A stretch of DNA of 64,000 bases from the NCBI GenBank assembly GCA_026415615.1, contig JAOAGT010000002.1, positions 448,545 to 512,544 on the forward strand, written 5' to 3'. Of the stretch, positions 7,819-41,588 are shown one piece after another. The notes under the pieces are model-generated. The model did not search any database, was not told where the DNA came from, and worked only from the letters and a program-made list of their open reading frames with translations. The position numbers were made by a program, and so were the translations under genes. Position 1 is the stretch's first letter, and each line of letters starts with the position of its first letter. This DNA is from Thermoleophilia bacterium (GTDB lineage Bacteria; Actinomycetota; Thermoleophilia; RBG-16-64-13).

Positions 7819-7863
7819 GTCAACTAAGGCGCGACGTGCCAACCGTTCGAGGAGAGAACAACG

Positions 7864-9591
7864 ATGGGAACAGGGCGCATTCCCCCTCCATATCTCCCTA
7901 AAGACCACTGGGAATACAACCTTTACGAATATCACAAGGGGCTCCCCGACAAGAGTCACTACGAGTTCATCGCTAACACACCCGGGGTCAAGACGGCCGA
8001 ATATTGGAAGGAATGGTGCCAGGCCATTTTCTACGCTGGCACTACCCTTTGCATGTGGAACGCACTCCCCGAGGTTAAAGCGGCCTTTCTGTCACTGTGC
8101 TCGTTTGAGCCAGGCATGAAGGTATTTCTGGTGGGCAAGTATTTGTGGGAAAGCGGTCTAGCGGACGCGGTTCGCTCCCTTGTCGGAGATTCGGGAACTC
8201 TCGGCATCCTTGACATGACTGATCAAGTTCTCGAGACTGTGCGTGAGCTGGGTCCGCGGCGGACGGTTCAGTATGAGGCTGCGGGGGCTACTGGCAGCCG
8301 GGCGGCTAGGCCGTTAGTTTGGCCCTTGACGTGTTTTGACGGACTACCAGAAGGAAGCCTAGACAGAGTGGTTTTCTTCAATGGCGGCGCGCATGTAGCT
8401 AATTGGGAGCATGTGGCGTCAGAGATAAGCCGCGTTCTTGGGGAGCACGGACGACTGGTGATGGCGGAAGCTCCTCTGGGCGGTAGGGAGTTTGAGAATG
8501 CTTTGCATCTCGATTCCCATTATGAGTCTTTCATTCTCAGGGTACTTTCCGGCCTAGGTCTGTCGGAGAATGAGCTTCCGTATGTGGACCCTCGGGGTCT
8601 AAGCGAGCTTCTGCGGCCGCATTTTGCGTGGACCAGGTGGTGGTCACACCGGGGCATTCTCCTGTTGTACGGAGCCAAGGGGAAGCACGGTCACGAGATT
8701 GCCGTGCCTGGGCCGGCAGCTTCACTTCCCTGTTCAGACGAGGCAAGGGGTCCAGTGAGCGCATTTCTCGCCGTCAAACCGGTGACCAGCAGCTGGGAGC
8801 TAATGACTGAGCGGGAAAGAGAGATCTGGGGTGAGACTGTCGAGGATATTCTCACCCCTCACATGGGGAAATGCGTCACCTGGGGAGGGGGATCTCTTTG
8901 CTGGAATTACCGCAACCAGCGGGAGATCACGGACATCATGTGGAGCAACCTCGCCGCAAAGCCCGGAGACAAAGTAATGGTGATCGGGGAGTTTCTGCAC
9001 GACCTGGGCACCCTTGAGGAAGTCAAGAGGCGAGTGGGACCTACCGGCCAGGTTTTCCCTGTTGATATAACTGCTTCGCCTTGCTCTTATGATTACAAAG
9101 GTTGGCAGGCTAAGCGTAAAGCCTACATGGATCTAGGTTCACCTGAGGAGTGGCCCTACGATTTTGCGGATGACTTTCCGGACGAGTTTTTCGACGTGCT
9201 GTTCCTGCCTCAAGGTGTACACCACTGCAACAACTGGCTTAGGGACGCTCCCAGACTTCTGCGCGCAGTCAAAGTTGGCGGGCAGGTCATGGCGATCGAG
9301 TGTGGAATCAACCGTCCGGAGATGGCGCTAGCCAGAGATTTAAGTGCTCTTGTGCAGGTGGTGGGCGACCGGGTGTTTCGCATCGCGCTGCCTGAATGGC
9401 TCGTGGGGCCGTTGAGCCCCGAAGGGCCTCTCCCAGCAGGTACTGGCTATGGCCACGAGGGTCGCCCGTACCATGATGTGCCGACGGCGCATCTTCGCGA
9501 GGCCTTTGGCGCGGGGCTTACGGACGTTTGCAGTTTGGAGTACAAGGGCTGGATCCTCTTCTGGGGGTATAAGGCGCCGCGGACTGTCTAA
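7864..9591 (+). CDS. uncharacterised protein with two tandem degenerate class-I methyltransferase-like domains (paralog of 29360-30883)
   Basis: 575 aa, ATG after GAGGAGAG. Each half carries G.KV.(L/V)(V/I)G(K/E)(Y/F)L...G in place of the GxGxG SAM loop, followed by FD.V(F/V)...H.....W....(I/L)RV(L/K).GG(R/Q)(L/V)(V/M). Motifs were recognised by eye only. Confidence 0.75.
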   Translation: MGTGRIPPPYLPKDHWEYNLYEYHKGLPDKSHYEFIANTPGVKTAEYWKEWCQAIFYAGTTLCMWNALPEVKAAFLSLCSFEPGMKVFLVGKYLWESGLADAVRSLVGDSGTLGILDMTDQVLETVRELGPRRTVQYEAAGATGSRAARPLVWPLTCFDGLPEGSLDRVVFFNGGAHVANWEHVASEISRVLGEHGRLVMAEAPLGGREFENALHLDSHYESFILRVLSGLGLSENELPYVDPRGLSELLRPHFAWTRWWSHRGILLLYGAKGKHGHEIAVPGPAASLPCSDEARGPVSAFLAVKPVTSSWELMTEREREIWGETVEDILTPHMGKCVTWGGGSLCWNYRNQREITDIMWSNLAAKPGDKVMVIGEFLHDLGTLEEVKRRVGPTGQVFPVDITASPCSYDYKGWQAKRKAYMDLGSPEEWPYDFADDFPDEFFDVLFLPQGVHHCNNWLRDAPRLLRAVKVGGQVMAIECGINRPEMALARDLSALVQVVGDRVFRIALPEWLVGPLSPEGPLPAGTGYGHEGRPYHDVPTAHLREAFGAGLTDVCSLEYKGWILFWGYKAPRTV

Positions 9592-9743: not shown

Positions 9744-11111
9744 TCACTGCCCCGGCCACGGTGGCTTCGGGTAAATGGGTTTAGCTGTCCGCTTTGGCCC
9801 TGGGTCTATTACCTCGATCACCCCGTTTTGCCACTGGCCGATGAAGCCAGCGTAACAATCGCGGGCAAGAAGCTGGTTCTCAAACCAAGTATCTCCCAGC
9901 ACAGTCTGGAAATGCTCAGTCTTTAGGACCTCAGCCACTTTCTTGTTGTCCAAAGTGCCGGCCTTTTCGATAGCTTGCTTCAACATGTCAAGCGCAGCCA
10001 CAAAGTAGGCATAGCCGTAGTAGTTCATGTTGGCTTCGGTTCCGACTCTTTGCAGCAGCTTGTCGTGGAGTTGAGCAAGAGCAGGTGAGCTATGCACGCT
10101 CCAGACTCCATAGCCGCAGACCCCCTCCACCACTTTGTAGCCTTGTTCTGGTCCTTTGTCGCCTCCCATGGCAAACGGGAAAGCGCCAAAGGTTGCTCCG
10201 GGGCCCATTACCAGCATGCGCGGGTTATAGCCCAGTTGCATCATCTGGGCCACCATCGGGAAGTTCTGATCTGGGTAGCAGGGTACGAAGAAGCAGTCAG
10301 GATCAGCCTGCTGCACCTTTCGTAGTATCTGAGTGAAGTCTGCGGTGTTGGCAGGAATTGCCTCGTCATAAAGCAGCTTGATTCCCGCGTTCTTGGCCTC
10401 CTGGCGCATAACCTCGGAGTACTCTAGCCCGTGGAGGTCATCGAGATACACCATAGCTACGCTCTTAACTCCCACTTCCTTGAATATATCGATGAGGGTT
10501 GGGATGTCGTAGTGATTTGAATAGCTGAGCAAGCCAAAGAACATCGGCAAGTCGGGCAGCACCTCTTCAATGCTCTTGGCCCCTGCTTCCCCCGAGATGA
10601 GCAGATAACCGTGGGAGTTCGCCACATTCGCGGCTGCGAAGACAAATGCTGTACTTGCGGGAGAAAGGATGAAGTCCACCTTGTCCTCGACCATAAGCTT
10701 CTCAAGGAGCCGCATGCAGGTGTCCATATCGCTCTGGTCGTCGTAGACTTTCATCTCGATGGGGAGTTTCTTGCCATACTCAGCTACGTAAATGCCGCCT
10801 TCGGCATTGACCTCTTCTACCCACATCTTATAGATGACACCCAAAGCATTTTGCTCGAAGAAGCTTAGTGGTCCAGAGATGGGACGGGCGGCTCCGATGA
10901 CTATCTTGTCTTTTCCGCCCAGAGTGGTGGCAGTAGAAGTTTCTGTACTAGGAGCAGCAGTAGTCGTAGGTCCGGATGTGGTCGAAGGTCCGGCAGTTGT
11001 GCTGGGTGCTGCCGTTGTAGTTGTCTCCTTCTCGCCACAAGCAGCAACCAGCAAGGCGACCGCGGCGAGTATGCATACAACGGCCAGAATTCGTAAGTGT
11101 TTAGATCTCAT
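9744..11111 (-). CDS. ABC-type substrate-binding lipoprotein, Leu/Ile/Val-binding (type 1 PBP) family
   Basis: 455 aa. Lipobox LLVAACG and a Thr/Ala/Pro/Ser linker. IVIGAARPISGPLSFFE... is typical of Peripla_BP_6. RBS GAGGGGGA. No permease or ATPase gene nearby. Confidence 0.8.
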   Translation of the reverse strand: MRSKHLRILAVVCILAAVALLVAACGEKETTTTAAPSTTAGPSTTSGPTTTAAPSTETSTATTLGGKDKIVIGAARPISGPLSFFEQNALGVIYKMWVEEVNAEGGIYVAEYGKKLPIEMKVYDDQSDMDTCMRLLEKLMVEDKVDFILSPASTAFVFAAANVANSHGYLLISGEAGAKSIEEVLPDLPMFFGLLSYSNHYDIPTLIDIFKEVGVKSVAMVYLDDLHGLEYSEVMRQEAKNAGIKLLYDEAIPANTADFTQILRKVQQADPDCFFVPCYPDQNFPMVAQMMQLGYNPRMLVMGPGATFGAFPFAMGGDKGPEQGYKVVEGVCGYGVWSVHSSPALAQLHDKLLQRVGTEANMNYYGYAYFVAALDMLKQAIEKAGTLDNKKVAEVLKTEHFQTVLGDTWFENQLLARDCYAGFIGQWQNGVIEVIDPGPKRTAKPIYPKPPWPGQ

Positions 11112-11284
11112 TTTTTATTCATCCCCCTCTCTTGCCTGTGCTGTCAGGAACGCACACGTTGCAGAATACAAACGCTAAACCGGATAAGCAATGCCTAGGG
11201 GCTACCGTGACCTGATGAGCAGGTGCTGATCCCCAGCACTGAAAAACCCCGCCCAGGCTTTTCTAAAGGTTAAATGGTGCGACG

Positions 11285-12025
11285 CTAATACTTGTCTGGA
11301 GCCGCACCGGGGGCCACACCGGGAGGAGGCGTCTGTATCGGTCTGCCGGTAACCGGATGAGAGCAGTGAAAAGGCAGAACCTCGTGCTCTGGCCAGCGGA
11401 GCGGCATTTGGTCGGCTAGTTCATCCGGACCATAAGGATCCTCGGGGTATGTGGTAGTGAGCAACGGTACAAAGTTAGGCGGCGCGAAAGCCCATCCATT
11501 CTCAAAAGTGCTAAACCATACCGGCCGATAGTCAAGCTTCTTGATCCGCCAGATGCCGTCGCGCTTGACGTAGACATTTTCATAGAGCGCCCCTTCCCAC
11601 CACTGTCGCGAGATGGTGGTGGGAGAGGGGTTGCGTTCGTAATGAGTGCCCGCCTGCATCAGAAGACGAAACCGGCCCCACGCTGTCTGCCGGTCGGGGG
11701 CGACGTCGATGACGTCCTGCATCATGGGGTGGTCAAGCAAGAAGCCGAACACAGGGCCATTCTTGCCGTTGGTGAACTGCTCGCGAAATCGCCCGCAGTA
11801 GAGACGGCGCGCACCTTCCTTGCCTCGGTAAATACCGCCGAAAAAATGAACTTCGCAATCGTCGTCGTAGCAATCCACGGCCTCGTCGTACATGCATTTG
11901 TCGATGAAGTAGCCGTAGAGATGCTGAAGCCGGCGAATTGCTTGTATGTCCTCAACCACCCCCAGGCGGTATTCGAGTTCTCTTACTCGCTCGCTAAGCT
12001 TCTCAAGCTCTGCAACCGGATCCAT
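11285..12025 (-). CDS. SnoaL-like / NTF2-fold protein (SnoaL_4-type)
   Basis: 246 aa. LEYRLGVVEDIQAIRRLQHLYGYFIDKCMYDEAVDCY..D is the typical N-terminus of SnoaL_4 proteins. RBS GGTGGGGGGG. Confidence 0.65.
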   Translation of the reverse strand: MDPVAELEKLSERVRELEYRLGVVEDIQAIRRLQHLYGYFIDKCMYDEAVDCYDDDCEVHFFGGIYRGKEGARRLYCGRFREQFTNGKNGPVFGFLLDHPMMQDVIDVAPDRQTAWGRFRLLMQAGTHYERNPSPTTISRQWWEGALYENVYVKRDGIWRIKKLDYRPVWFSTFENGWAFAPPNFVPLLTTTYPEDPYGPDELADQMPLRWPEHEVLPFHCSHPVTGRPIQTPPPGVAPGAAPDKY

Positions 12026-12066
12026 CTCGGCCCCCCCACCATTTGACTAGCTTGCTCCTCGATACT

Positions 12067-13092
12067 TCAGCTTGCTCCCCGGTACTTCTCAACACCCACC
12101 CCAATAGGCTGGGACATCAAAAAGAAAACTTGCTTTCTTATGTCTCTGATGATCAAAGGTCCCTGACTTACGTTTGGGGGGATATAGGCGAAGAAACTCT
12201 TGGTAATCACGTGCTTCTCGCCCCCAATCCAGAGCTCGACCTCAGCGCAAAGGTCCGTGATGTCCTCGTAGTTAAGACCCAGCATAGCCAGGGAGGTGCC
12301 GTGAGGAACGGCGTGCTCGTCCATGATCACCAACTCCGCCCTTGTCTCTTTGGTGGGCAGATACCATCTGGTGTCACAGCCAAACTCAGCATCAGGGATC
12401 ACGGTCTCGTCAATATAAGCAGCAGGACGAACGTATTCGGGGTCAAGGGGACGCATGTATTCTGGGCGCTTCACATCCGGAGGCGTGCCGAATACTACAT
12501 ACCGGGCGTATTTGGACTCGGCAGGGTCCACGTGTCTGGCCACTGGCGGCTCTTTCTGTTCCTCCTCTGCCTGTTTGGTTTTTTCGTCTTTCTCCCGTGT
12601 GTAGACCCCGCCTGGCCCCGAAGTCCAATGCACGGTCGGGCGGGAGAAATGATGGCCGGTCACCCCTCCTGAGAACACTGGCATATGAGGGAGCCCGGCT
12701 GGTACGTAGGCTACCCAACTGCTTGGGAGGGGAATAATTTCGTCACCCATCTGAATGGCTGTGGGGTCGGTTTTGCTCGGGTCGTCTGGATCGGTTCCCC
12801 ACCAAGAAAGCAGTTCGGGAAAGTCATGGACATGCGGAAACATGGTGGGTGTCTGGTAGCCCAGCTTGGCCAGGTCTTCCCAGGTTACCTGATTGGGATA
12901 GTCAGGAGGCCAAATCCAGGTGGTTTCCCCATAGTAGGCGCCAGGGATCACGTCGTGGTCGATCCAGTGGACATGCTCCATGCTAATCCGCTTCCCTTGG
13001 GCAGCCAGTTGACGCCTCTGCTCTGGGGTGGGGCCGGGCAAGAGGTGCTGCTTCTGCAATGTGGTGCAAATGTACTTGTCAAACTGACCCAT
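12067..13092 (-). CDS. two-domain cupin-like protein (bicupin), uncharacterised subfamily
   Basis: 341 aa, RBS AAGGGAGGG. The N-domain has HVHDFPELLSWWGTDPDDP...YVPAGLPHMP (HxH..E......G and PxGxxH cupin motifs). The C-domain is a degenerate second barrel (AEVELWIGGEKHVI...YIPPNVSQGP). A Lys/Glu-rich linker joins them. Confidence 0.7.
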   Translation of the reverse strand: MGQFDKYICTTLQKQHLLPGPTPEQRRQLAAQGKRISMEHVHWIDHDVIPGAYYGETTWIWPPDYPNQVTWEDLAKLGYQTPTMFPHVHDFPELLSWWGTDPDDPSKTDPTAIQMGDEIIPLPSSWVAYVPAGLPHMPVFSGGVTGHHFSRPTVHWTSGPGGVYTREKDEKTKQAEEEQKEPPVARHVDPAESKYARYVVFGTPPDVKRPEYMRPLDPEYVRPAAYIDETVIPDAEFGCDTRWYLPTKETRAELVIMDEHAVPHGTSLAMLGLNYEDITDLCAEVELWIGGEKHVITKSFFAYIPPNVSQGPLIIRDIRKQVFFLMSQPIGVGVEKYRGAS

Positions 13093-13136
13093 GGCCTTGT
13101 GCCCTCCCTTGACGTGTATCGCGCAGAACGCGCCGC

Positions 13137-13634
13137 CTATGATGTCCCTTTCCCGTAGGGGATTGTTTCAAAATTCATAACCTTGTGGGGATCGAAGTCC
13201 TTGTCTTGCTCAAAATACGGCTCTCTAGTTCCCTCCGGGCCAGCAAGCATGATCTCAACCTGAATTATGGGCTTGTCCACGCGAGTGACTTCTAACGGGC
13301 AGTGGGGAAGGCCAGGTGGGAGATGGACTAGCGTGGGCCGAGTGAATACGTGTTTTTCCATCTCGGGCCCAAAGTGGAGTACTACCTCAGCCTCAAATTC
13401 ATCGGGGTCTTCGGGATTTCCGCTGTACCAGGCCAGGAACTCGTGAAAATTGTGCGTGTGGCAGGGATTATCTCCTCGAAACGGCTTTCGCACAAACTGC
13501 AGGCCCATAGTAAGGGGAAACCCGAGCTGCTGGTGGCCGATCATAAGACCATCGAAGACTACCGTCCCATCTGACTTCATGCTGAGGCGCAAATGGGGCG
13601 GATGATGAATATATTGGTCATACTTTCCGCTCAT
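13137..13634 (-). CDS. cupin domain protein, same subfamily as 12067-13092 and 33431-33898
   Basis: CHTHNFHEFLAWYSGNPEDPDEFEAEVVLHFG...HLPPGLPHCP. ATG 13634 has GGAG 6 nt upstream. An alternative ATG at 13646 lies 3 nt after the SDR stop. Confidence 0.75.
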   Translation of the reverse strand: MSGKYDQYIHHPPHLRLSMKSDGTVVFDGLMIGHQQLGFPLTMGLQFVRKPFRGDNPCHTHNFHEFLAWYSGNPEDPDEFEAEVVLHFGPEMEKHVFTRPTLVHLPPGLPHCPLEVTRVDKPIIQVEIMLAGPEGTREPYFEQDKDFDPHKVMNFETIPYGKGTS

Positions 13635-13649
13635 GCTCGTCTCCATTGG

Positions 13650-14447
13650 TTACATTACCGATCCGCCTGAGACATGGAACACCTGTCCAGTCACATAGCT
13701 TGTAATGTCCGAGGCGAGGATCGCAATAGCATTTGCCATATCCCGCGCAGTGCCAAACCGGCCAAGCGGAAACTCACCCATGATGGCTGCCTGTCTTCTT
13801 TTCATCTCCTCTGGGGAAATGTTGGGGTCGGGCTCTCTTAGAATGGCTCCGAAGTTAGTGGGCACAGGACCGGGTGCCACACAGTTAACCCGAATTCCGT
13901 TTTTTCCTTCTACATACGCCAACTGCTTGGTGAACAAGTCGACGGCGTATTTGGAGATGGCGTACATACCCACCCCCATTTGGTACTGATGCGTGCTTCC
14001 CGAACCCACGTTCACGATGACCCCGTAGCCTCGTTCGCGCATATGAGGGACCACCGCCTGGGTGACGTTCATCGTGCCAATCAGGTTTAACTTAAGCTGC
14101 TTTTCCCAGACTGTAGGATCTTGCTTTTCGATGGGTACGTTGTCCTTGTGCAGGATAGCTCCGGCCACATTGCAGAGGATGTCAATCCGCCCAAATTCTT
14201 CGAGGACTTTCTGGACCATAGCTTTGACGGCCGCATTGTCAGTGATGTCGGCGCTTAGGGCAATACATCTTGGGCCCAAGCTGCGCACGGTTTCTGCGGT
14301 CTTGGCCAGGTTCTCCTCATCAATGTCTGTTACGGCGATGGCCTCGATCCCTTCCTCGGCCAACACCAAGGCCGTCTCTCTCCCTATCCCCACCTGGCTA
14401 GCTGCGCCCGTTACGAGGGCCACTTTGTTCTTGAAACCCAGATCCAT
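13650..14447 (-). CDS. short-chain dehydrogenase/reductase (SDR)
   Basis: 265 aa. TGAASQVGIG cofactor loop, NVAG and YAISKYAV (YxxxK). Confidence 0.9.
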   Translation of the reverse strand: MDLGFKNKVALVTGAASQVGIGRETALVLAEEGIEAIAVTDIDEENLAKTAETVRSLGPRCIALSADITDNAAVKAMVQKVLEEFGRIDILCNVAGAILHKDNVPIEKQDPTVWEKQLKLNLIGTMNVTQAVVPHMRERGYGVIVNVGSGSTHQYQMGVGMYAISKYAVDLFTKQLAYVEGKNGIRVNCVAPGPVPTNFGAILREPDPNISPEEMKRRQAAIMGEFPLGRFGTARDMANAIAILASDITSYVTGQVFHVSGGSVM

Positions 14448-14472
14448 GTTCGCGACTCCCTGCTTGTAGTGA

Positions 14473-16320
14473 TTATGGCCACAGCACTTGGGCTATGTCA
14501 TCGAGACCCAGCTCAAGCAGTTTGGCCTTGCTCGGCTTGCCCGTCTTCGTATCCCAGTCCATCTCGACCAGGTACTGATCGTAAATCTCCTCGTGCGTGA
14601 AGGTGATGCCGGCTCGTGGGCCCACGGTCTTGGGCGGTACGCCTCTCATCCTATCGGGGTAGAGGAAAGGCGTCTGGACACCCTCTCTAATGTTGAAGGC
14701 CTGCCTGACGTTGGTGATTCTTTCACCGGTCTTAAGCAGCTCGTCTGCGCTGATGTCCTCCCAGCCGGTCAGGGCTCTCAGAGCTTCGAGCAGTTGGTCC
14801 ACATGTGGATATGCTCCAATCACAAACTGGCAAAGCCCCATGGCGCTTGCTGCGTGCATGAAGTTGGTGCTGATCTTGTGGTAAAGGCCACGGCCGGTAC
14901 GTTGCTCGCGTGGTATATCGGGTATATTCAAGCCTGGTGGGTGTTGCCCGCCTCCCTGATTGTGTCTTCCGGGGGTGGGGTCGCAGCCATAACCAATGGC
15001 AAATCCCCAACCGCCACGAGGGTCGTGACCAGCAATCTCTTGACCGCCAATGTGCATGGCATATTTCTCTGCGCCCCGACCAATCTTCTCGGCCGCGCGC
15101 TTTACGCCGTCGGCGATGATGTCGCCAAAGCCCTCACGCTTGGCCATCTTCTCGACCATTGCCACGATAGCCTTGTGATTGCCCCAGGTCATCTCAAGGC
15201 CGTCTGTGTCCGCCTGAGAAAGCACGCCGTTTTCATAACACTCAATGGTGAAGGCGATGCAAGCACCCGCAGAGATGGTGTCTAGGCCATAACGATTGCA
15301 GATGTCGGCGGCCAGGATGATGGAGTCAAGGTTTGAGTTCAGGAGGTTGCTCCCCAGCATAGCAAGCGTCTCGTACTCGGGTTTATGAGCGCCCTCCTCA
15401 TACTTGTATTCGCCTGTTCCGGCTTTCATTAGGCCCCCGCAGGCAATGGGGCAACGCCAGCAGGCAAAGCGGCGCATCTGCTTTTCTAATACCGCTTGCC
15501 CTCCACAAGCTGCGTAGTCGGGAAGATCGACGGTAACCACACCGGCCCAATTCTTGGCTGGAGCGTCGTCGATTATGCAGCACATCTCGAATATGCCGGG
15601 GGTGCCGGTTTCGTGTAGCTGCTCAGCATGGCCGGTAAGGGCGGCCACGTGCTTTTTTCTGAGCTCTTTCATTAACTCGGGGTTGTAGGCCGGCGGGATG
15701 AGATTGCCCTGGGCCACGATAGCCTTTAGACGCTTGGAGCCCATGACCGCGCCGAGACCTGAACGGGCCGCGGCTCGGCCCTTATTGTTGATTACCCCGC
15801 TAATTAGAGCGAGCTTCTCGCTCGCTGGACCGATGCAGGCTACCTCCAGGTTCTTGCCGTGTTTGGCGCGCAAGATATCTTCAGTTTCTACAGTGTCTTT
15901 CCCCCAAATCTCTGCGGCGTCCAGGAGTTGGGCCTCCCCATTGTGAAGGTAAAGGTAGACCGGTTTCTCGGAAATTCCGGTGAAAAAGACGGCGTCGTAA
16001 CCAGCGAACTTAAGCTGCGGGCCAAAGCTCCCTCCCGAGTTGGCGTCCCCCCATCCTCCGGTGAGAGGAGATTTGCCGACTACTGTGTAGCGGGAGCCGC
16101 CGACTACGTCGGTGCCAGTGGTTATGCCGGTCACAAAACCCAACGTGGCGTCGGGGCCTAGGGGATCTACTCCTGGCTTTTGCCGGTCCCAGAGCACTCG
16201 CGCGCCTAGCCCGTATCCGCCCAGGTATTTGCGGGCGGCCTGTTCGTCGAAAGTATCTACGGTTATCTCGTGGGTTGTAAGATCCACCCAGAGGATTTTC
16301 TCCATAGCTCCAAAAGCCAA
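14473..16320 (-). CDS. aor: aldehyde:ferredoxin oxidoreductase family (tungstopterin) enzyme
   Basis: 615 aa, TTG start after AAGGAGGT. N-terminal ILWVDLT...YLGGYGLG...GPLTG...GGWGDAN. [4Fe-4S] ligands CWRCPIAC plus GLCQF. GLDTIS pterin motif. Confidence 0.9.
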   Translation of the reverse strand: MAFGAMEKILWVDLTTHEITVDTFDEQAARKYLGGYGLGARVLWDRQKPGVDPLGPDATLGFVTGITTGTDVVGGSRYTVVGKSPLTGGWGDANSGGSFGPQLKFAGYDAVFFTGISEKPVYLYLHNGEAQLLDAAEIWGKDTVETEDILRAKHGKNLEVACIGPASEKLALISGVINNKGRAAARSGLGAVMGSKRLKAIVAQGNLIPPAYNPELMKELRKKHVAALTGHAEQLHETGTPGIFEMCCIIDDAPAKNWAGVVTVDLPDYAACGGQAVLEKQMRRFACWRCPIACGGLMKAGTGEYKYEEGAHKPEYETLAMLGSNLLNSNLDSIILAADICNRYGLDTISAGACIAFTIECYENGVLSQADTDGLEMTWGNHKAIVAMVEKMAKREGFGDIIADGVKRAAEKIGRGAEKYAMHIGGQEIAGHDPRGGWGFAIGYGCDPTPGRHNQGGGQHPPGLNIPDIPREQRTGRGLYHKISTNFMHAASAMGLCQFVIGAYPHVDQLLEALRALTGWEDISADELLKTGERITNVRQAFNIREGVQTPFLYPDRMRGVPPKTVGPRAGITFTHEEIYDQYLVEMDWDTKTGKPSKAKLLELGLDDIAQVLWP

Positions 16321-16398
16321 CGCCTACCTCCTTAGCTCGATGACGCCGTATTTATGACTATGGTCTTTATGACCCACTCAGACATCCGTTTGGCTTAG

Positions 16399-17715
16399 TT
16401 ACTTGCCGGTCACACTGGGAAGCCATGTCGCTAGCCCCGGGATAAGGAACAGGAGCACTACCATCAGCAGCCCGAGGGCAAAGAACGGCATGGAAGAACG
16501 AAACACCTGCCCCAGGGTAGCATGTGGTGGTGCTATAGCCTTCATAGTGTAAACATCCAGTCCAAACGGCGGAGATATCAGACCAAGCTGGATGTTAAGG
16601 AGAGAAACGACCCCGTACCAGATCAGATCGTACCCGAGGGCCTTAGCCAGCGGGAAGAAGATTGGCACCGTGATCATAACGATGCTGGCCGGATCCATGA
16701 ACATGCCGAGGAAGATAAGAATCACTTGAGTAGCGATGATTATGTAGATGGGGGCAATGTTGGCGCCTGTGGCCATATCGATCAGCTTTTGAATGGCCCC
16801 GGTGGTGGCCAGGATGCGGCTGAAGCTAATTGAGCCCACCACAATGAACATAACCATGACGGTGACGCGTACGCAGCTCATGGCGGATTTCGTTACCGTT
16901 TTCCAGCTTAACTGTCGGTAGAAAGCCGCCAGGACAAAGCAGGCTAACACGCCTAGAGCCGCTGCCTCACTCGGGGTGGCCACACCCAGGTATATGCTTC
17001 CGATCACCGCCAGAATGACAATGCCGATTGGGAGGATGTGGAATGTAAACGTGCGAAGCTTGTCTGTGAGGGAGACCTTTTCCACCTCGTAGGTGGGGGC
17101 AAGCGAAGGATCAAGTTTGCAACGTATCATGATGTAGAGGGCAAAGAGAATGGCCAGAAGCACACCGGGGATGATAATGGCCATGAGCAGCTTCCCTACT
17201 GAAATTTGCCCGATGGCTCCCAAAAAGACGGCAAGCGCGCTCGGTGGGATCAGAATGGCTAGGGTCCCGCTGGTGACGATGGGACCGTAAATCATAGCTG
17301 GTTTGTATCCTCGCGCTTCCATTTCGGGTACTAGTACCCGTCCAAGGATGCCAATCGATCCTCCACTGATGCCAATCATCGTCCCCAGAAGGACGCCGGA
17401 CCCTACGGCGAGTAGGCTTAAGCGGCCGGGCACCTTGCCTAGGAGCTTGTCTACCGCGCCCACTATTCGTGCGCCTGCTCCCGAAGAGAAGATGACGTCT
17501 CCCATCAGCACAAAAAGCGGGATGGGTAAAAACGCATAGTTTGCTACCGCGCTGTAAAAGCTCATTGCCAGCTGATCAAGACCCGGCGCCCCGCCCCAAA
17601 ACAGGACAGAACCAATGATGCACGTGAAGGTGAAAGCGAAACATATGGGCATGCCAGTCATCATGATGACAATGAGGCAACCAAACATGATAAGCAGTGA
17701 CGCCAACCATTCCAT
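16399..17715 (-). CDS. TRAP transporter large permease (DctM family)
   Basis: 438 aa polytopic membrane protein with a typical DctM N-terminus, directly after DctQ (9-nt gap). RBS AGGAGG. Confidence 0.9.
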   Translation of the reverse strand: MEWLASLLIMFGCLIVIMMTGMPICFAFTFTCIIGSVLFWGGAPGLDQLAMSFYSAVANYAFLPIPLFVLMGDVIFSSGAGARIVGAVDKLLGKVPGRLSLLAVGSGVLLGTMIGISGGSIGILGRVLVPEMEARGYKPAMIYGPIVTSGTLAILIPPSALAVFLGAIGQISVGKLLMAIIIPGVLLAILFALYIMIRCKLDPSLAPTYEVEKVSLTDKLRTFTFHILPIGIVILAVIGSIYLGVATPSEAAALGVLACFVLAAFYRQLSWKTVTKSAMSCVRVTVMVMFIVVGSISFSRILATTGAIQKLIDMATGANIAPIYIIIATQVILIFLGMFMDPASIVMITVPIFFPLAKALGYDLIWYGVVSLLNIQLGLISPPFGLDVYTMKAIAPPHATLGQVFRSSMPFFALGLLMVVLLFLIPGLATWLPSVTGK

Positions 17716-17724
17716 GGCTGCCTC

Positions 17725-18273
17725 CTACTCTGCTTTACCAGCTGGAGGCTGGGTCTCCGCTGGGGTCGGGGGACTGGTCTGCCGGTAGGCTTTAAAGTAG
17801 TTGACCGCGTGCCTTACTGCCTGGATTGTCAGCACCAGAAACGATATGGGAATGATCATCTCGATGGGCCACTTAACCGGATTAAGCACAGTAGCCAAGA
17901 TGAAGTGGTTGAGGTAGTCGTTGATAGTTAGCCGCGCGGTCAGAAAAAGACATAGGAGGCACAGGGCAACTACTACGCATGAAGTGGCGAAGTTAAGCAA
18001 GTTCTGGGCTCTCTTTGAAAGCATTCCAAGAATGGATTCCATCCTTACATGCCCGTGGTCGCGGTAGATGGCGGCTGTGCCAAGAAAGGTAAGCCACACC
18101 ATCGTGTAGGTCAGAAGCTCATACAAAGGTGCCCAGGTGAAGTCGACTGTCTTTCTGATGATTACGTCCTGTGCTATGGCCAAAGTGTCGAGAAGGATCA
18201 AGATGGCCGAGAGCAGCAGGAGAAAGTTAACAAGCTTGTCAAAAGCTCGGCCAGCTTTCTGTAAGAAGCGCAT
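17725..18273 (-). CDS. TRAP transporter small permease (DctQ family)
   Basis: 182 aa with four hydrophobic segments. Position between the DctP- and DctM-type genes. Confidence 0.8.
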   Translation of the reverse strand: MRFLQKAGRAFDKLVNFLLLLSAILILLDTLAIAQDVIIRKTVDFTWAPLYELLTYTMVWLTFLGTAAIYRDHGHVRMESILGMLSKRAQNLLNFATSCVVVALCLLCLFLTARLTINDYLNHFILATVLNPVKWPIEMIIPISFLVLTIQAVRHAVNYFKAYRQTSPPTPAETQPPAGKAE

Positions 18274-18322
18274 GTCACTAACCTCTCACAGGTTGGTTGA
18301 AGTACGCGCAAGCAGAGAAGCA

Positions 18323-18364
18323 GAGGGCGCGAAGCGGCCCTGGACAGGGCCGCTTCGCGCCCTC
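18323..18364 (-). promoter_or_regulatory. intercistronic 19-bp perfect hairpin between TRAP SBP and permease genes
   Basis: GAGGGCGCGAAGCGGCCCT-GGAC-AGGGCCGCTTCGCGCCCTC. No U-tract on the mRNA strand. Confidence 0.7.
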
Positions 18365-18458
18365 ACTTGGGTCTTGCCTGGTTCCGCAGGATGGCAAACC
18401 ACCCCGATCCGCCTAGCCTACGACCTGTCTAGCCTATGGCTGGCTAATCCAGGCACCT

Positions 18459-19610
18459 TTACTTGGCGCGCTCAAAGTCTGGATTCACGAGCCATTCCTT
18501 GAGCTTGGGGCCAATCTCGGGCCACCTCGCGATGTCTTCGGCCCACATCGACTCGCGGTACTTCAGATAGAACTGCTTTGACTCCTCAGGCGACAGGTGA
18601 ATGATCTTAATACCCGCAGCTTCAAGATCTGCCTTTACCTTTTCCACTGTCTTGTGGAAGTGGTCCGCCATGTCAATCTCGGTTTGAATCATGGCTTGGG
18701 TGAGCACGGCCTTTTGTTTCTCAGTGAGGCTCTCCCACTTCTTGAGGTTCATGATCATCATGCCGCCGCAGGAGCTGAACGGCTCGTCCAGCATAGCCTT
18801 GGTCACAGGCGTGAGTCCGAAGTCCTGAATGCCGGGGATGCCGATGTTGTAGCCGTCGACTGTCCCGCGCTCCATGGCTGTGAAGTACTCAGTAAAGTCT
18901 ATGGGCACGCAGACTGCGCCGAGGGCCTCAATGAAGGAACGGTTGGAACCGCCGGTGGCTGCGATCTTGAGCCCCTTCAAGTCAGCTAGGCCGTTGATAA
19001 CCTTGCCGAGGTAAATGACCGTCTGCTCCTGGGGACGAGACGAGACAGAGGCCCCCAAGTACTTGATGCCGTTCTTAGCAAATTCTTCCTCGTAGTACTT
19101 AAAGGCTGGGTTGCCGTTGCGCAGCTCTGGCGGGCTGTATTCAGCTCGCCCGATGGTGCTGCATCCGGGGACCATGGTGTCGCAATAGGCGGACATTACG
19201 CTCGCGATATCCATCGTGCCCCTTTGTACTGCAGCTGGCTGGTCCGGGGCGGGGATAGCCTCTGGGCCGTTGAACTTGATGGTCATCTTGCCAGCCGAGT
19301 ATTCCTGGACCTTGTTAATGAAGTCGCGGTGCCAGTCGGCTCCCGGGGGAATATCGGGCAAGAAGCAGGCCATGGAAAGCTCGATAGGCTCTACATCAGC
19401 AATTACCTGAGGCCCCGACGCAGCTGTCGTTTCTGTAGATGGCGCAGTAGTCTCAGTGGGCGCAGCCGTAGTGGTTGTCGCGGGTGCTTGGGTGGTAGCG
19501 GTGGTAGCCGGTGCGGCTGTGGTTGTGGTGGCTTCTTCCTCTCCGCACGATACCGCCAGGATAGACAGCGCAAGTACACAGCAAATGGCTATTATGGCCA
19601 GTTTCCTCAT
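18459..19610 (-). CDS. TRAP transporter substrate-binding lipoprotein (DctP family)
   Basis: Preferred start is ATG 19610 (MRKLAIIAICCVLALSILAVSCG lipobox), followed by a Thr/Ala linker. The body is DctP-like. The ORF-track N-terminal 42 aa were judged non-coding. Confidence 0.85.
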   Translation of the reverse strand: MRKLAIIAICCVLALSILAVSCGEEEATTTTAAPATTATTQAPATTTTAAPTETTAPSTETTAASGPQVIADVEPIELSMACFLPDIPPGADWHRDFINKVQEYSAGKMTIKFNGPEAIPAPDQPAAVQRGTMDIASVMSAYCDTMVPGCSTIGRAEYSPPELRNGNPAFKYYEEEFAKNGIKYLGASVSSRPQEQTVIYLGKVINGLADLKGLKIAATGGSNRSFIEALGAVCVPIDFTEYFTAMERGTVDGYNIGIPGIQDFGLTPVTKAMLDEPFSSCGGMMIMNLKKWESLTEKQKAVLTQAMIQTEIDMADHFHKTVEKVKADLEAAGIKIIHLSPEESKQFYLKYRESMWAEDIARWPEIGPKLKEWLVNPDFERAK

Positions 19611-19839
19611 GGTGCCCCCCAATCCTAAGATTGCCTGATTTTGCCAAGTCTGCCTGCTGACGTGGAAGTCATTTCTCGCAAGTGCCGAGATGTGCTCTGG
19701 TCCGCTCCAACCTCCTTTGCTCCCGTTTGCTGTCAAGCCGGAACCTGTTGATCAGTGCCTCCCGGTATCGCCAAGCGTATAGCGTGGTGCTCCCGGGCCG
19801 AGACTGCTACTCCGGCGCGCCCGACTATGTTAGTGAGGA

Positions 19840-19908
19840 CTACTAGCACACGCTACTAGCGAATGCAACCGGTCTGTGTTATGTAGGACAGGTAATCGAG
19901 TTACTAGA
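19840..19908. promoter_or_regulatory. repeated CTACTAGC / TTACTAGA boxes in the TetR-TRAP divergent region (candidate TetR operator)
   Basis: CTACTAGC at 19840-19847 and 19853-19860 (13-bp period). TTACTAGA at 19901-19908. Confidence 0.35.
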
Positions 19909-19971
19909 CAGCGTTCTTACCAGGGCAAGATGCTTCCCTCGGTACTGGGAATGAAAGGCGTGACACACAAC

Positions 19972-20832
19972 ATGGACTACCTTGACTTGCCCGCGGGCAA
20001 GAAAGAAAACACCAAGAAGGATGACGGTACTGGCCCTGAGGGCAACAGTTCGTCGCCACAGACCGGAACCACCCTCACCACCCACACCCGTGAGATCTCG
20101 GGAACTGTAGCTCGCAGTAGTGAGACCGCGGGAACAAACGGAGGAGGCAGCAAGAGGAGCTCCGTATCTCTGCGGTGGAAGACCATGAAGCCCGAACAAA
20201 AGAAGGAGGCGGTTATCAAAGCCGTACTGCGGGTGATAGCCAAACACGGGGTTCAAGGTACCACCACCGCTCGTATCGCTGCAGCTCTGGGGGTATCTGA
20301 GCCGACCATCTACCGAGTTTTCCCGAGCCGGCGGGAAATGCTTCTGGCTGCGGCGCAAAGTCTATGGCGGCAACGCCGTGAAGAGCTCGAGGCGTTTGTT
20401 CCAGTTGACGCTATGGACTATCTAAGGAAGTTATCTGCGCATCACACCGCTGGCATCCAGAAAACCAGAGTAACCCGGTATCTTTACGAGCTTTCGGTTG
20501 CGCGGCCTTCTGATGGACTCCGTGACTACTTGCGCGGGGAAATGATCGCCGAAGCAGAACGTCTTGCGGCTATTGTGGAGCAAGGACAAAAAGAAGGGTG
20601 CATCCGTGCAGACGTAGACCCCGGGGAAACAGCCTGGCGGATCATGACCGTTTACTGGCTTGAGGCTATGGCCCGGCTCCATGGGCTTGAGGACATTCTT
20701 CTCACCGGGTTTTCCACCCGGTTTTTCGACGGGATCCTAACCGACATTGCTGCCGCGCCTCTAGATGCACCAGGTGAGCAGCAAACTGTAGGGCAAAGTA
20801 GCGTCAAAGCGAGCGGTCTTGAGGGAGTGTGA
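19972..20832 (+). CDS. TetR/AcrR family transcriptional regulator
   Basis: HTH TTARIAAALGVSEPTIYRVFPSRREML. The start is uncertain: candidate starts are the ORF-track start at 19876 and ATG at 19972 and 20185. The HTH begins right after 20185, and the region before it is low-complexity. Confidence 0.8.
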   Translation: MDYLDLPAGKKENTKKDDGTGPEGNSSSPQTGTTLTTHTREISGTVARSSETAGTNGGGSKRSSVSLRWKTMKPEQKKEAVIKAVLRVIAKHGVQGTTTARIAAALGVSEPTIYRVFPSRREMLLAAAQSLWRQRREELEAFVPVDAMDYLRKLSAHHTAGIQKTRVTRYLYELSVARPSDGLRDYLRGEMIAEAERLAAIVEQGQKEGCIRADVDPGETAWRIMTVYWLEAMARLHGLEDILLTGFSTRFFDGILTDIAAAPLDAPGEQQTVGQSSVKASGLEGV

Positions 20833-20836
20833 ATAG

Positions 20837-22093: not shown

Positions 22094-22123
22094 CAAAGCA
22101 CAGGAAAGCTTAGGAATGAAACC

Positions 22124-22858: not shown

Positions 22859-22873
22859 CAAGGAGTACCAGTC

Positions 22874-23095
22874 ATGGCCATACGTCACTTTAGTCGTGAC
22901 GATTGCACGGGATGCGGGATATGTGTCGCTGCGTGTCCCATGGATGTGCTTCGTCTGGATGAGGAAGCGCAGAAGGCAACCGTAAGCTATCCCGACGACT
23001 GCATCGCCTGCTGGGGTTGCGAGTCGTTCTGTCCGCAGGGTTGTTTCGATATTTCTCCCGAACGGGCCCGCGGGGAGCTACCCGCTCCTTACTGA
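22874..23095 (+). CDS. 2x[4Fe-4S] ferredoxin
   Basis: 73 aa. CTGCGICVAACP and CIACWGCESFCP. Confidence 0.9.
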   Translation: MAIRHFSRDDCTGCGICVAACPMDVLRLDEEAQKATVSYPDDCIACWGCESFCPQGCFDISPERARGELPAPY

Positions 23096-23133
23096 GTCTC
23101 GCGGAGTAACAAAGGCGAGTGGGAAGGAAAGAC

Positions 23134-24849: not shown

Positions 24850-24900
24850 CTGGTAGTTGGATAGGCGGCCCTCAACGGTAAAGGAGGCGGGAAGAGCGCG

Positions 24901-26367: not shown

Positions 26368-26429
26368 GCTTTGCTTCTGAGGCGAGGCCTGTTGGTGAGA
26401 CATTGGTCGTAGCAGAAGGAAGGAGCGAG

Positions 26430-27704: not shown

Positions 27705-27721
27705 GAAGGAGGTCGAAAGCC

Positions 27722-29359: not shown

Positions 29360-30883
29360 TTGACAGCCCTACCCGAGAGAACAGCAAGCTGGTGCCAAGC
29401 GTTGTTCTTTGCTGGATCCACGACCTACATGTGGAATCAGGCGCCGGAGCTTAAAGCGCTTTTCTTGACGGCCTGCTCCTTCGAGGAAGGTATGGACGTA
29501 CTCCTTATAGGCAAGTTCTTGGAGGAAAGCGGTCTTGTTTCGGCCGTTGAGTCGATCCTACGGAGCTGGGGCAATCTGCGGGTAGTGGACTTGGCTCCCC
29601 AGGTTGTGGCTGCATGGCGGGCGGCGGGTGTGGCAGATGAGCAGCCTTCTTTCAAATGGGATCTTGATTGTTTTGATGAGCTCAGAGATGGGAGTCTCGA
29701 CCGTGTCGTGTTGTTTAACGCGGCCTCCCACGTTGCGGACTGGGAACATCTGTCTGCTCAAATCGGCCGGGTTCTTTGTCGAGGAGGCCGGGTTGTAGTC
29801 GCAGAGGCTCCACTGGGCGGGGCTGCTTTTAAACGCGCCCTTGCCTTTCACGCAGGATGGCGAGCAACGGTCGAAGGATTGCTTAGCGGCTTGGATCTAG
29901 AAGAAAGGGCAGTTGCTCCGCCAGAACCGGAGGATCTCAGGGCTCTGCTTGCCCAGCATATGACTTGGGCTCGTGTGCATGAGTGGCAGGGAATCTTTAT
30001 TTGCTACGGACAAAAAGGTCTCACAGAAAGGGAGGAGCTGGAAGCGTCCACAGCTGCCGAGATGGCCGGTCTGGGGGAGAATGATCTGGTCTACGTACCC
30101 GGTCCGGACACGTTTACAGCTTTTCCGCCGGCCAACATCTGGGTGCGCAGTTTCTTGAAGGTGCGTCCAGTGCGCACCACGTGGAGCCTTATGAGCGAGC
30201 TTGAGAAGGAAATTTGGGCAGACACCGCTGTAGAACTAGTGACACACTCAGGTGGCGATCTGTCAACAAATAAGGTGCTGGGGCTTAGCTTGATCGTCGA
30301 GTCGCCACAATCTGAGTTGGCGTCGCAGACACTGGTTTTGACGAAGCCTGCTGCAATAGGAGATGCGCTAGGAGGCTTTTCTCATCACTGGGCTTCTGGG
30401 CTTGTCGGCGCGTTTCTGGAATGCTTCCTGGGTCCAGATGATGGCCACCTTGCAAAGGTTGGAGAAACGCATGGTCCTTCTGAGCTGGGAAGTCTTGTTG
30501 CCAGACACTCGGCAGACGAGCTTGATCTTCTTTTTGTTGACGCCAGACTGGGTGACAGACACTACTGGAAGGAAACAATATCCCTCCTGTTGCCGGTTCT
30601 AAAACCCGGGGGCCGGCTTGTGTTATTTGCGGAAGATGGCGATGCTATCCAGCTGCTGTCGTTTCACAGCGCCTTCGCGCGCCTGCTTCTGGCAAGACTA
30701 GTGACTCCAGCAGACCCACTCGCTGCAGACTCCGCGGACGCGCTCTGTAACCGACTGACGGGCGGCATAAATATGGACCCCGAGTTGCTGCGCCAAGTGC
30801 TTGCAGGGTTCTTTGATGAGATCTCTGTGGCAGGACACGGCGGCTTCGTATTTGTGTCTGGCCGAAAACCTATGCGTCTTTAG
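29360..30883 (+). CDS. uncharacterised degenerate methyltransferase-like protein, paralog of 7864-9591
   Basis: 507 aa, TTG start after AAGGAGG. The N-terminal ~200 aa align with 7864-9591 by eye (WCQALFFAG..MWN..PE.KA.FL..CSFE.GM.V.L(I/V)GK(F/Y)L.ESGL...SLDRVV(L/F)FN...HVA(D/N)WEH....I.RVL...GR.V(V/M)AEAPLGG). The C-terminal half is diverged. Confidence 0.75.
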   Translation: MTALPERTASWCQALFFAGSTTYMWNQAPELKALFLTACSFEEGMDVLLIGKFLEESGLVSAVESILRSWGNLRVVDLAPQVVAAWRAAGVADEQPSFKWDLDCFDELRDGSLDRVVLFNAASHVADWEHLSAQIGRVLCRGGRVVVAEAPLGGAAFKRALAFHAGWRATVEGLLSGLDLEERAVAPPEPEDLRALLAQHMTWARVHEWQGIFICYGQKGLTEREELEASTAAEMAGLGENDLVYVPGPDTFTAFPPANIWVRSFLKVRPVRTTWSLMSELEKEIWADTAVELVTHSGGDLSTNKVLGLSLIVESPQSELASQTLVLTKPAAIGDALGGFSHHWASGLVGAFLECFLGPDDGHLAKVGETHGPSELGSLVARHSADELDLLFVDARLGDRHYWKETISLLLPVLKPGGRLVLFAEDGDAIQLLSFHSAFARLLLARLVTPADPLAADSADALCNRLTGGINMDPELLRQVLAGFFDEISVAGHGGFVFVSGRKPMRL

Positions 30884-41587: not shown

Positions 41588-41588
41588 C

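Follow-up and report, generated by a model that had tools for sequence, protein, structure and literature searches.

In class I methyltransferases, the acidic residue of strand 1 is 'exceptionally well conserved', and the acidic residue ending strand 2 is the canonical binder of the ribose hydroxyls (PMC1282579). Among described systems, UbiE/MenG/Coq5 (PF01209; yeast Coq5, 4obw) have an N-terminal lid motif (G..W), a '...VG..G.V...D' segment and an FD...H..W...RVLKPGG block in common with the 575-aa protein described here. RquA likewise combines a UbiE/Coq5-like fold with disrupted SAM motifs and a kept ribose-binding Asp; it is SAM-dependent despite that disruption, and non-methylating chemistry is possible in such proteins (PMC9814641). 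Two methyltransferase-fold domains per chain are found in the di-domain phosphoethanolamine N-methyltransferases (PMTs; plant 5wp5/5wp4, nematode PMT1/PMT2 4krg and 4krh), and nematode HcPMT1 and HcPMT2 have one catalytic domain each (PMC4805780). Finally, an altered cofactor site within a retained methyltransferase fold, as here, is known from the N domain of anamorsin (4m7r), from sc-mtTFB, which has a bulky Tyr in its glycine loop (PMC1282579), and from fungal pericyclases, which work without SAM or SAH (PMC10491745).

The 575-aa protein is encoded in a 64,000-nucleotide stretch of Thermoleophilia DNA (hereafter, the window) and is a rare, uncharacterised bacterial protein consisting of two fused methyltransferase-shaped halves. 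It is identical to a protein of an NCBI metagenome-assembled genome (Thermoleophilia bacterium N3B14_05020) annotated as 'hypothetical protein'. Unlike UbiE/MenG/Coq5, it has a replaced strand-1 Asp and GxGxG, a longer loop and a tandem arrangement, and some of its relatives are predicted to be exported. RquA differs in being single-domain, cytoplasmic or membrane-associated and SAM-dependent, and in keeping the N6-binding Asp; of the two SAM-contacting Asp residues of RquA, only the ribose-binding acidic residue is identifiable in the present family. In the PMTs, the active domain retains canonical SAM motifs, and these enzymes were crystallised with SAM or SAH, whereas neither half of the 575-aa protein has such motifs and both halves are strongly conserved. 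Anamorsin, sc-mtTFB and the pericyclases have no specific sequence relationship to it and differ in domain architecture and taxa.

Fold, internal duplication and family assignment

Profile-profile comparison of the N and C domains returned a probability of 99.5 % (E value 2.1e-22, 211 columns), with the loops of both halves in register (KVFLVGKYLWESGL versus KVMVIGEFLHDLGT). The AF2 model (pLDDT 88.4) displays seven strands per half, giving the seven-stranded alpha/beta class I methyltransferase fold; in the N domain these lie at residues 86-91, 112-117, 153, 166-172, 192-202, 256-262 and 265-271. Foldseek returned 217 PDB matches at E<=1e-3, nearly all of them methyltransferases, with the di-domain PMTs as the best structural matches and the anamorsin N domain also among them. 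The first-pass annotation, whose quoted motif strings are all found in the translation, had proposed two tandem methyltransferase-like domains; the halves are indeed homologous, and both are Rossmann-like class I methyltransferase folds. The C domain additionally bears family-specific insertions at residues 402-442 and 505-540, while the N-terminal extension is conserved within the clade of the 575-aa protein and has no signal peptide (Table 1).

Table 1. Features of the 575-aa protein gene and its paralog, in window positions
Feature	Position	Strand	Remarks
Shine-Dalgarno-like sequence (GAGGAGAG)	7849..7856	+	GAGGAG, 7-9 nt before ATG; read in sequence
ORF of the 575-aa tandem methyltransferase-fold protein	7864..9591	+	ATG start
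N-terminal extension, residues 1-44 (PPPYLPKDHWEYNLYEYHKGLPD...)	7864..7995	+	
N-terminal methyltransferase-fold domain, residues 45-275	7996..8688	+	
Rebuilt motif I, N domain, K86-L99 (KVFLVGKYLWESGL)	8119..8160	+	
D117, acidic residue ending strand 2, N domain	8212..8214	+	D/E in 45/45 relatives
Inter-domain linker, residues 276-289	8689..8730	+	variable, low-confidence
C-terminal methyltransferase-fold domain, residues 290-575	8731..9588	+	
Rebuilt motif I, C domain, K370-G382 (KVMVIGEFLHDLG)	8971..9009	+	
D401, strand-2 acidic residue, C domain	9064..9066	+	acidic in 24/42 relatives, Asn in 10
Paralog, 507 aa	29360..30883	+	
Rebuilt motif I, paralog N domain, D46-L59 (DVLLIGKFLEESGL)	29495..29536	+	

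The sole Pfam match was Methyltransf_11 (PF08241; 33.6 bits, gathering threshold 21.2). Its best stretch (residues 160-200, profile positions 55-95 of 95) covers the second half of the model only, and the motif I half therefore goes unrecognised. Searches of Pfam, NCBIfam and PDB sequences and profile searches gave generic methyltransferase matches only and no curated family with this loop as a known variant. Several specific assignments were rejected. Scores fell below the cut-offs for UbiE/COQ5 (PF01209, 13.0 bits versus 20.1; NF001240, 17.3 versus 378); the RquA model (NF038261) did not match the 575-aa protein and hit only one relative (P0068, 14.7 bits versus a cut-off of 175); and the anamorsin N-domain model (PF20922) likewise did not match it, relatives scoring 11-19 bits against 27.1. 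Membership of the di-domain PMTs was rejected on 10-14 % identity, no sequence-level match and no canonical SAM site. An arsenite methyltransferase was considered on account of a nearby ArsR gene and weak ArsM-type matches in relatives; however, scores were far below the cut-offs and no ArsM cysteine motifs were present. No PADLOC or PHROGs match was returned for the window proteins that would indicate a defence-system or phage origin.

The motif I loop and other SAM determinants

In the N-domain loop, L89 stands in place of the strand-1 acidic residue, G91 corresponds to G1 and is directly followed by the all but invariant K92, Y93 occupies the G2 position and E96-S97-G98 are conserved. Among 45 full-length relatives, the consensus is [G/A]-K-[Y/F/H]-x-x-E-[S/T]-G, each fixed position being retained in 43-44 of them, and the loop is among the best-conserved 11 % of segments of equal length. 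The C-domain loop has E376 after G1 (Glu in all 42 C domains) and F377 at the G2 position, and single-domain relatives resemble the C domains in carrying Glu after G1. In neither half does motif I consist of the small-residue GxGxG (N, G-K-Y-x-x-E-S-G; C, G-E-F-x-x-D-L-G), and no carrier of the canonical loop was found among the family members examined.

The first-pass annotation had regarded the glycine loop as replaced in both domains and in the paralog, by selection rather than decay. The loop is altered, but is better called expanded by about three residues, with G1 kept and the second Gly kept seven residues later. The claim that the replacement is the same throughout holds for the N domain of the paralog, a protein with 40 % identity to the 575-aa protein in its N half and with the rebuilt loop in this domain only (VLLIGKFLEESGL); its C half has a more divergent methyltransferase-like fold without an alignable loop, and the N and C loops of the family differ systematically (K-Y..E-S-G versus E-F..D-L-G). 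Conservation, on the other hand, was borne out by the counts given above, and with so well-conserved an N loop and a C domain under equal constraint, the site is in use and not decaying. A vestigial C domain was likewise rejected for the 575-aa type because its C domain is as conserved as its N domain within the clade, and fits the paralog better (72 % versus 89 % identity to P0031).

Scoring against the canonical determinants of PMC1282579 covered 45 N domains, 42 C domains and 28 single-domain relatives. An acidic residue in the middle of strand 1 occurs in 0/115, its place being taken by a hydrophobic residue in 45/45, 42/42 and 28/28, respectively, and G1 is followed by a charged residue in 113/115. 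The small G2 and G3 residues are lost across the family, with an aromatic residue at G2 in 44 of the 45 N domains and Phe or Leu there in 30 of the 42 C domains. Three of the canonical SAM determinants are missing family-wide. In the HMM alignment, the canonical 'aN/aD' of motif III, where an acidic residue after strand 3 contacts the adenine, falls on a two-residue gap of the family flanked by aromatic residues. Other elements persist: the motif IV acidic residue (D167 in 44/45 N domains, D444 in 41/42 C domains) and an invariant Gly before strand 5 (G196 and G472). The acidic residue after strand 2, which had been ascribed to each half, is universal in the N domains but lost in 18 of the 42 C domains.

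COMT and CCoAOMT (motif I G-x-Y-x-G-Y-S) have an aromatic residue at G2 and a Ser soon after, like G91-K-Y93...S97-G98, and the COMT loop itself reads G66-A-Y68-C-G70-Y-S72, with Tyr at the G2 position. The role of COMT Tyr68 is described in PMC5001633. However, COMT keeps a strand-1 Glu, G3 and a normal loop length and is Mg-dependent, whereas the 575-aa family lacks these loop features, and kinship to COMT/CCoAOMT was not detected by any search run.

Some observations speak against a loss of SAM binding. The N domains (45/45) and nearly all single-domain relatives (27/28) retain the ribose-binding acidic residue, the classical sign of preserved adenosyl binding, and COMT-type methyltransferases bear Tyr at G2. 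RquA also needs SAM despite its disrupted motifs (PMC9814641).

Relatives, export signals and gene neighbourhood

Signal peptides were predicted by eye and from hydropathy only. Seven full-length relatives (P0027, P0030, P0177, P0180, P0184, P0185 and P0186) begin with a basic n-region and a hydrophobic h-region without a twin arginine, and the fragment P0049 has the same Sec-type start. Most of these putative signal peptides belong to one clade, which shares about 30 % identity with the 575-aa protein and has five members without them. P0015, which is 60 % identical to the 575-aa protein, has a Tat-like start (MNPIRSLMGRRQFMAGALGATAAVL); it is the only such case, and its start may have been miscalled. 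Loop and acidic residue are unchanged in the predicted-exported relatives. Sec-type export proceeds with the protein unfolded and without cofactor, and no SAM is available beyond the cytoplasm; members bearing Sec-type or Tat-like signals would therefore lack a SAM supply. In archaea, the single-domain relatives carry a fused C2H2-like zinc finger. A profile search of a 5.8-billion-protein set with the domain alignment, limited by its word index, added little.

We compared the gene context of ten loci. Neighbours of phenolic, quinone or aromatic-metabolism type and solute-binding proteins are present in most, and Peripla_BP_6 solute-binding proteins are adjacent in five loci, though between clades their identity is only 24-31 %. 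In locus L010 the surrounding genes are housekeeping genes, and in L007 the gene immediately upstream is a MarR gene. When all neighbours within 7 kb were clustered against each other, no conserved operon emerged, only a generic SDR cluster being present in at least three loci, and no conserved partner gene was found across the compared loci. Guilt by association therefore yields no specific function, and as the context is not conserved, the link to phenolic catabolism is soft. A LytR-CpsA-Psr (LCP) gene upstream of the 575-aa protein gene (45-bp gap, no terminator found) was dismissed as a hint to function, since LCP genes do not occur next to the gene in any other locus.

Candidate functions

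The proposal that this Rossmann protein no longer uses SAM canonically was partly supported, drawing on the fold, the conserved change, the three missing determinants and the signal-bearing relatives. Because the cofactor-binding loop has been systematically rebuilt, the 575-aa protein is probably not an ordinary methyltransferase. Our preferred explanation, which we hold tentatively and at slightly less than an even chance, is that two UbiE/Coq5-type methyltransferase folds have been fused and that both ancestral SAM clefts have been remodelled into a different ligand site. The same tentative standing applies to the explanation as a whole, in which the protein would be a cytoplasmic pseudo-dimer. 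Precedents for methyltransferase folds operating without SAM are the fungal pericyclases (PMC10491745), sc-mtTFB (PMC1282579) and the anamorsin N domain.

It is unlikely that the protein is a genuine SAM-dependent small-molecule methyltransferase, whose N domain would bind SAM via an expanded motif I with a COMT-like Tyr at G2 and whose C domain would be non-catalytic. Such an enzyme would account for the retention of G1, the second Gly, the strand-4 Asp and the Gly before strand 5, for the contrast in the strand-2 acidic residue (45/45 N versus 24/42 C domains) and for a Methyltransf_11 score above the gathering threshold. The best structural matches are also the di-domain PMTs, of which HcPMT1 and HcPMT2 use one domain each (PMC4805780), and COMT Tyr68 at G2 is compatible with SAM binding (PMC5001633). 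However, the strand-1 acidic residue is absent from every copy, the all but invariant Lys after G1 and the loop lengthened by about three residues are unlike any curated methyltransferase family, predicted-exported relatives retain the same loop and acidic residue, and conservation of the C domain matches that of the N domain, more than one would expect of a mere vestige.

Very unlikely, in our estimate, is a non-canonical use of SAM or a derivative, for which RquA (amino transfer to a quinone), spermidine synthase (decarboxylated SAM) and LepI, SpnF and SpnL (SAM/SAH as a non-consumed prosthetic group) are models. UbiE/Coq5 ancestry is common to RquA, with its ribose-binding Asp kept amid disrupted motifs (PMC9814641), and the charged loop residues recall the Asp by which spermidine synthase keeps out the SAM carboxylate (PMC1282579). 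With a Tat-type signal, P0015 could be exported with a bound cofactor, but most predicted-exported relatives are of the Sec type, implying cofactor-free export; moreover, the RquA model does not match the 575-aa protein, and the adenine-N6-binding acidic residue of RquA cannot be aligned in the family. We consider least probable a non-catalytic pseudoenzyme that serves in scaffolding, sensing or regulation, as do the anamorsin N domain, sc-mtTFB or Trm6/METTL14-type partners. Although the loss of canonical cofactor determinants, the anamorsin N domain among the structural matches, weak Anamorsin_N Pfam matches in relatives, the zinc-finger fusions of archaeal relatives and the MarR gene in L007 are consistent with such a role, conservation is among the highest in the former active-site loop and lid and extends to polar residues (C52, N66, K72, K92, E96, S97 and H177), as would be more usual for a ligand-binding or catalytic site; there is also no conserved partner gene, and predicted exported versions exist.

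Under the preferred explanation of a fused and remodelled UbiE/Coq5-type pair, SAM would not be used as a methyl-donating co-substrate. Rather, the N-domain cleft (putatively K92, Y93, E96, S97, D117, W153 and H177, under a lid with C52, W65, N66 and K72) may bind, and perhaps transform, a small polar or aromatic molecule, while the C domain would fill the role that the second subunit had in an ancestral homodimer, supplying a conserved acidic-aromatic insertion (EEWPYDFADDFPD). Phenolic or quinonoid compounds of anaerobic aromatic catabolism would be the most likely ligands, given the UbiE/Coq5 ancestry, with its benzoquinol substrates, and the neighbours across loci.

A broader proposal, which we regard as rather unlikely, is that these proteins form an unrecognised family in which a UbiE/Coq5-type fold has become a SAM-independent enzyme or binder, its rebuilt loop (an invariant Lys or Glu after G1, an aromatic residue at G2, Glu-Ser or Cys further on) handling phenolic or quinonoid compounds in anaerobes. 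The family would comprise single-domain proteins, probably dimers, and fused pseudo-dimers, and would work on either side of the membrane through cytoplasmic, Sec-exported and possibly Tat-exported forms. Databases label its members 'SAM-dependent methyltransferase' or 'hypothetical protein', and this annotation is wrong for the whole small family if canonical SAM use is indeed abolished by the rebuilt loop. If true, this would be a clean natural case of the commonest cofactor-binding fold being repurposed, with a fused pseudo-dimer and exported members, and a tractable one for the changes that switch a methyltransferase fold off SAM (the strand-1 acidic residue, G2 to aromatic and a three-residue insertion). 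It might also point to a missing step in how uncultured anaerobic Actinomycetota and Chloroflexota deal with phenolic or quinonoid compounds.

Fold and rarity of the family

The gene encoding the tandem methyltransferase (MT)-like protein has GAGGAG 7–9 nt 5′ of its ATG, and its translation contains every motif string quoted in the first-pass annotation. The product is a 100 % match to N3B14_05020, a 'hypothetical protein' of a Thermoleophilia MAG (518-kb contig), and hydropathy revealed no N-terminal hydrophobic segment. Methyltransf_11 was the sole Pfam match (33.6 bits, gathering threshold 21.2); because its best stretch (residues 160–200, profile positions 55–95) is confined to the model's second half, motif I goes unrecognised by Pfam. 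NCBIfam returned only UbiE matches, far below threshold, and a PDB sequence search gave a best E value of 0.19.

Profile–profile alignment of the N half (residues 45–275) with the C half (290–575) returned 99.5 % probability (E value 2.1e-22, 211 columns) with the loops in register; the internal duplication is therefore real. An AlphaFold2 model built from a 20-sequence alignment (pLDDT 88.4, pTM 0.90) has seven strands plus flanking helices per half and a low-confidence linker between them. Its top Foldseek matches in the PDB were di-domain phosphoethanolamine N-methyltransferases (PMTs; ~600 columns, E value 1e-9); a large number of single MTs and the N domain of anamorsin ranked below these. 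The Rossmann-like fold proposed earlier is thus supported by the predicted structure, and the protein is a member of the class I MT fold.

Members of the family are very scarce. At E ≤1e-3, a search of 5.8 billion proteins returned 27 clusters and one of 1.84 billion returned 132 representatives (47 at ≤1e-10), the weakest of which are ordinary MTs; a pattern-based scan, giving a lower bound, placed members in at least 2 of 185,579 species-representative genomes (one Actinomycetota and one Chloroflexia MAG). The window-type clade (555–596 aa, 45–65 % identical) is separate from a clade of 500–512 aa, a clade with a C-terminal extension and a paralog-type group, while single-domain proteins of ~240 aa align over their full length with either half of the fused proteins. 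Among canonical proteins, the domain profile comes closest to those annotated as demethylmenaquinone/UbiE methyltransferases; in the PDB, its strongest profile matches are RebM, MitM and YcgJ (E ~1e-10).

In the archaeal single-domain relatives P0158 and P0072 (loci L013–L015, gene at 10001–10906), an N-terminal C2H2-like zinc-finger motif (YRCDYCGF...LEHMVTH) is fused to the MT-like domain, with TBP and proteasome genes nearby. The 451-aa relative P0024 (gene at 10001–11588 of one Chloroflexia contig, L006/L011) is probably a gene call truncated by a frameshift or assembly error, as tblastn covers query residues 7–573 on that contig.

A rebuilt motif I loop

In HMM alignments, the family reads VLliGE..(x)..CGf vs VLDvGcGtG in canonical MTs: the first glycine (G1) is retained, the loop gains ~3 residues, and another Gly, at G1+7, is nearly invariant. 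SAM determinants as defined by Kozbial and Mushegian (PMC1282579) were scored in 45 N domains, 42 C domains and 28 single-domain relatives. The strand-1 acidic residue was absent throughout (0/45, 0/42 and 0/28, respectively), and the residue after G1 was Lys in 43/45 N domains and Glu in all C domains (42/42) and single-domain proteins (28/28). The first-pass claim of the same replacement in both halves is too simple, as the change differs between the N and C domains. Tyr/Phe/His occupies the G2 position in 44/45 N domains and Phe/Leu in 30/42 C domains, the single-domain proteins being mixed; further along, N domains carry Glu-(Ser/Thr)-Gly (43/45) and single-domain proteins Cys-Gly. The strand-2 acidic residue is present in 45/45 N domains, 24/42 C domains (Asn in 10) and 27/28 single-domain proteins. 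All three sets retain the Asp of strand 4 and the Gly that precedes strand 5. The motif III residue did not align to the family with confidence.

The N-domain loop falls within the most conserved 11 % of equal-length windows, and in the window clade the C domain equals the N domain in conservation (mean entropy 1.03 vs 1.07). Judged from these counts and conservation, with Lys or Glu after G1 near-universal, the loop change is ancient, systematic and under selection, in line with the earlier view that it does not reflect decay. The single-domain loop (alignment A2) reads G-E-x-x-x-x-C-G, with Cys at G1+6 in 22/28; this Glu/Cys could form a metal-binding or nucleophile pair. The Cys is replaced by Ser in the fused N domain and Leu/Met in the fused C domain.

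The paralog shares 40 % identity with the window protein over the N half and linker (E value 2e-66). The replacement also claimed for it is present in its N domain, where the loop reads VLLIGKFLEESGL, but not in its C half, where HMM alignment found no alignable loop. This half is alpha/beta in the AlphaFold2 model (pLDDT 80.7), the whole of which matches di-domain PMTs, as for the window protein, and it has diverged faster from the ortholog P0031 (72 % identity; N half, 89 %).

Genomic context and relatives with predicted export signals

Features of the window discussed in the text
Feature	Position	Strand	Description
Window-protein ORF	7864–9591	+	ATG start, 575 aa
Catabolic-looking block	9744–29212		Peripla_BP_6 protein, SnoaL_4, two unknown ORFs, SDR, aldehyde:ferredoxin oxidoreductase (AOR), TRAP transporter, TetR, URO-D-like protein, second SDR, FAD_binding_2 (fumarate-reductase-like flavoprotein), FAD_binding_4/CCG/FAD_binding_4 (GlcDEF-like)
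Unmatched ORF	12067–13092	-	341 aa, between SnoaL_4 and SDR/AOR genes
Unmatched ORF	13137–13646	-	169 aa, between SnoaL_4 and SDR/AOR genes
Paralog ORF	29360–30883		507 aa
DUF1846 family gene	36381–37895	-	N and C domains, E value 6e-161
Pyrogallol-hydroxytransferase-like pair	40736–44093	-	Fer4_11 + CarboxypepD_reg gene beside AhtL-like_1st + Molybdopterin gene

The window gene lies 3′ of an LCP-family gene (45-bp gap) and is convergent with a Peripla_BP_6 solute-binding protein gene. Of ten loci compared, five have Peripla_BP_6 or its permease next to the family gene, the binding proteins sharing only 24–31 % identity between clades. CocE/NonD-type hydrolases occur in two loci, a carboxylesterase, isochorismatase, Amidohydro_2 protein or MarR regulator in one each, and nitroreductase, quinone-reductase-like, molybdo-enzyme or HpaB genes in several; one locus is purely housekeeping, and neighbour clustering of the ten found no specific conserved partner gene.

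The two window paralogs flank the ~20-kb block, the right-hand part of which is syntenic in a related strain (locus L012); its two unmatched ORFs had no Pfam match at E ≤1e-3. The molybdoenzyme pair, 10 kb beyond the block, has the two-subunit architecture of pyrogallol-phloroglucinol hydroxytransferase-type enzymes, suggestive of an anaerobic metabolism of trihydroxybenzenes or polyphenols. Together, the neighbouring genes give a weak hint of anaerobic breakdown of aromatic or phenolic compounds, which would be consistent with the benzoquinol-binding ancestry of the fold. The DUF1846 gene adjoins a metallo-beta-lactamase-fold gene and a GMP-synthase-C/NAD-synthase-like gene.

Candidate signal peptides were called from sequence features and hydropathy, without a dedicated predictor. 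Sec-like N-termini (basic n-region, strongly hydrophobic h-region, no twin arginine) were seen in seven full-length distant-clade members (P0027, P0030, P0177, P0180, P0184, P0185 and P0186) and one fragment (P0049), with 12-residue Kyte–Doolittle maxima of 1.8–2.8 vs ≤0.6 in most window-type proteins; five exported-clade members lack a signal peptide. A Tat-like N-terminus, MNPIRSLMGRRQFMAGALGATAAVL (also given as GRRQFMAGALGATAAV), was seen in P0015, which shares 60 % identity with the window protein. The distant Sec-like clade shares a conserved C-terminal extension, ...YYPMADWWHGYPYLQKFVPK. On its contig (ENA ERZ1426829), P0186 adjoins a COesterase gene and lies between phage-type integrase and D5-primase/terminase (GpA) genes; a prophage or integrative element may therefore carry it as cargo.

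Possible SAM use and a proposed new role of the cleft

We tentatively favour, at somewhat under an even chance, a fused pseudo-dimer of UbiE/Coq5-derived domains whose ex-SAM cleft would now accommodate a different small ligand (probably a phenolic or quinonoid one), with SAM not the methyl donor. Against canonical SAM use stand the loss of three motif-I determinants in every copy, the loss of the strand-2 acidic residue in many C domains, the absence of a canonical GxGxG loop from all family members examined, and the predicted export signals. The next most probable reading, which we consider rather unlikely, is a true SAM-dependent MT that has diverged and in which the C domain is accessory.

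Retained adenosyl binding is favoured by the strand-2 acidic residue of all N domains. Exported proteins have no SAM supply, and since relatives with export signals retain this residue as well as the rebuilt loop, its conservation is no proof of SAM binding. Tyr68 of COMT sits at the G2 position. That residue is required for methyl transfer (PMC5001633), and RquA, Coq5-like with disrupted motifs, still requires SAM (PMC9814641). Both precedents speak for retained adenosyl binding. Non-canonical SAM use of the RquA, spermidine-synthase or LepI kind seems improbable, and a non-catalytic pseudoenzyme marginally more so.

The first-pass observation of a replaced loop is thus confirmed and refined, and its interpretation supported in part. 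By the criteria applied, the window protein does not qualify as a functional member of the canonical SAM-dependent MTs, the UbiE/COQ5 family, RquA, PMT or anamorsin, and we place it as a variant among repurposed or degenerate MT folds.
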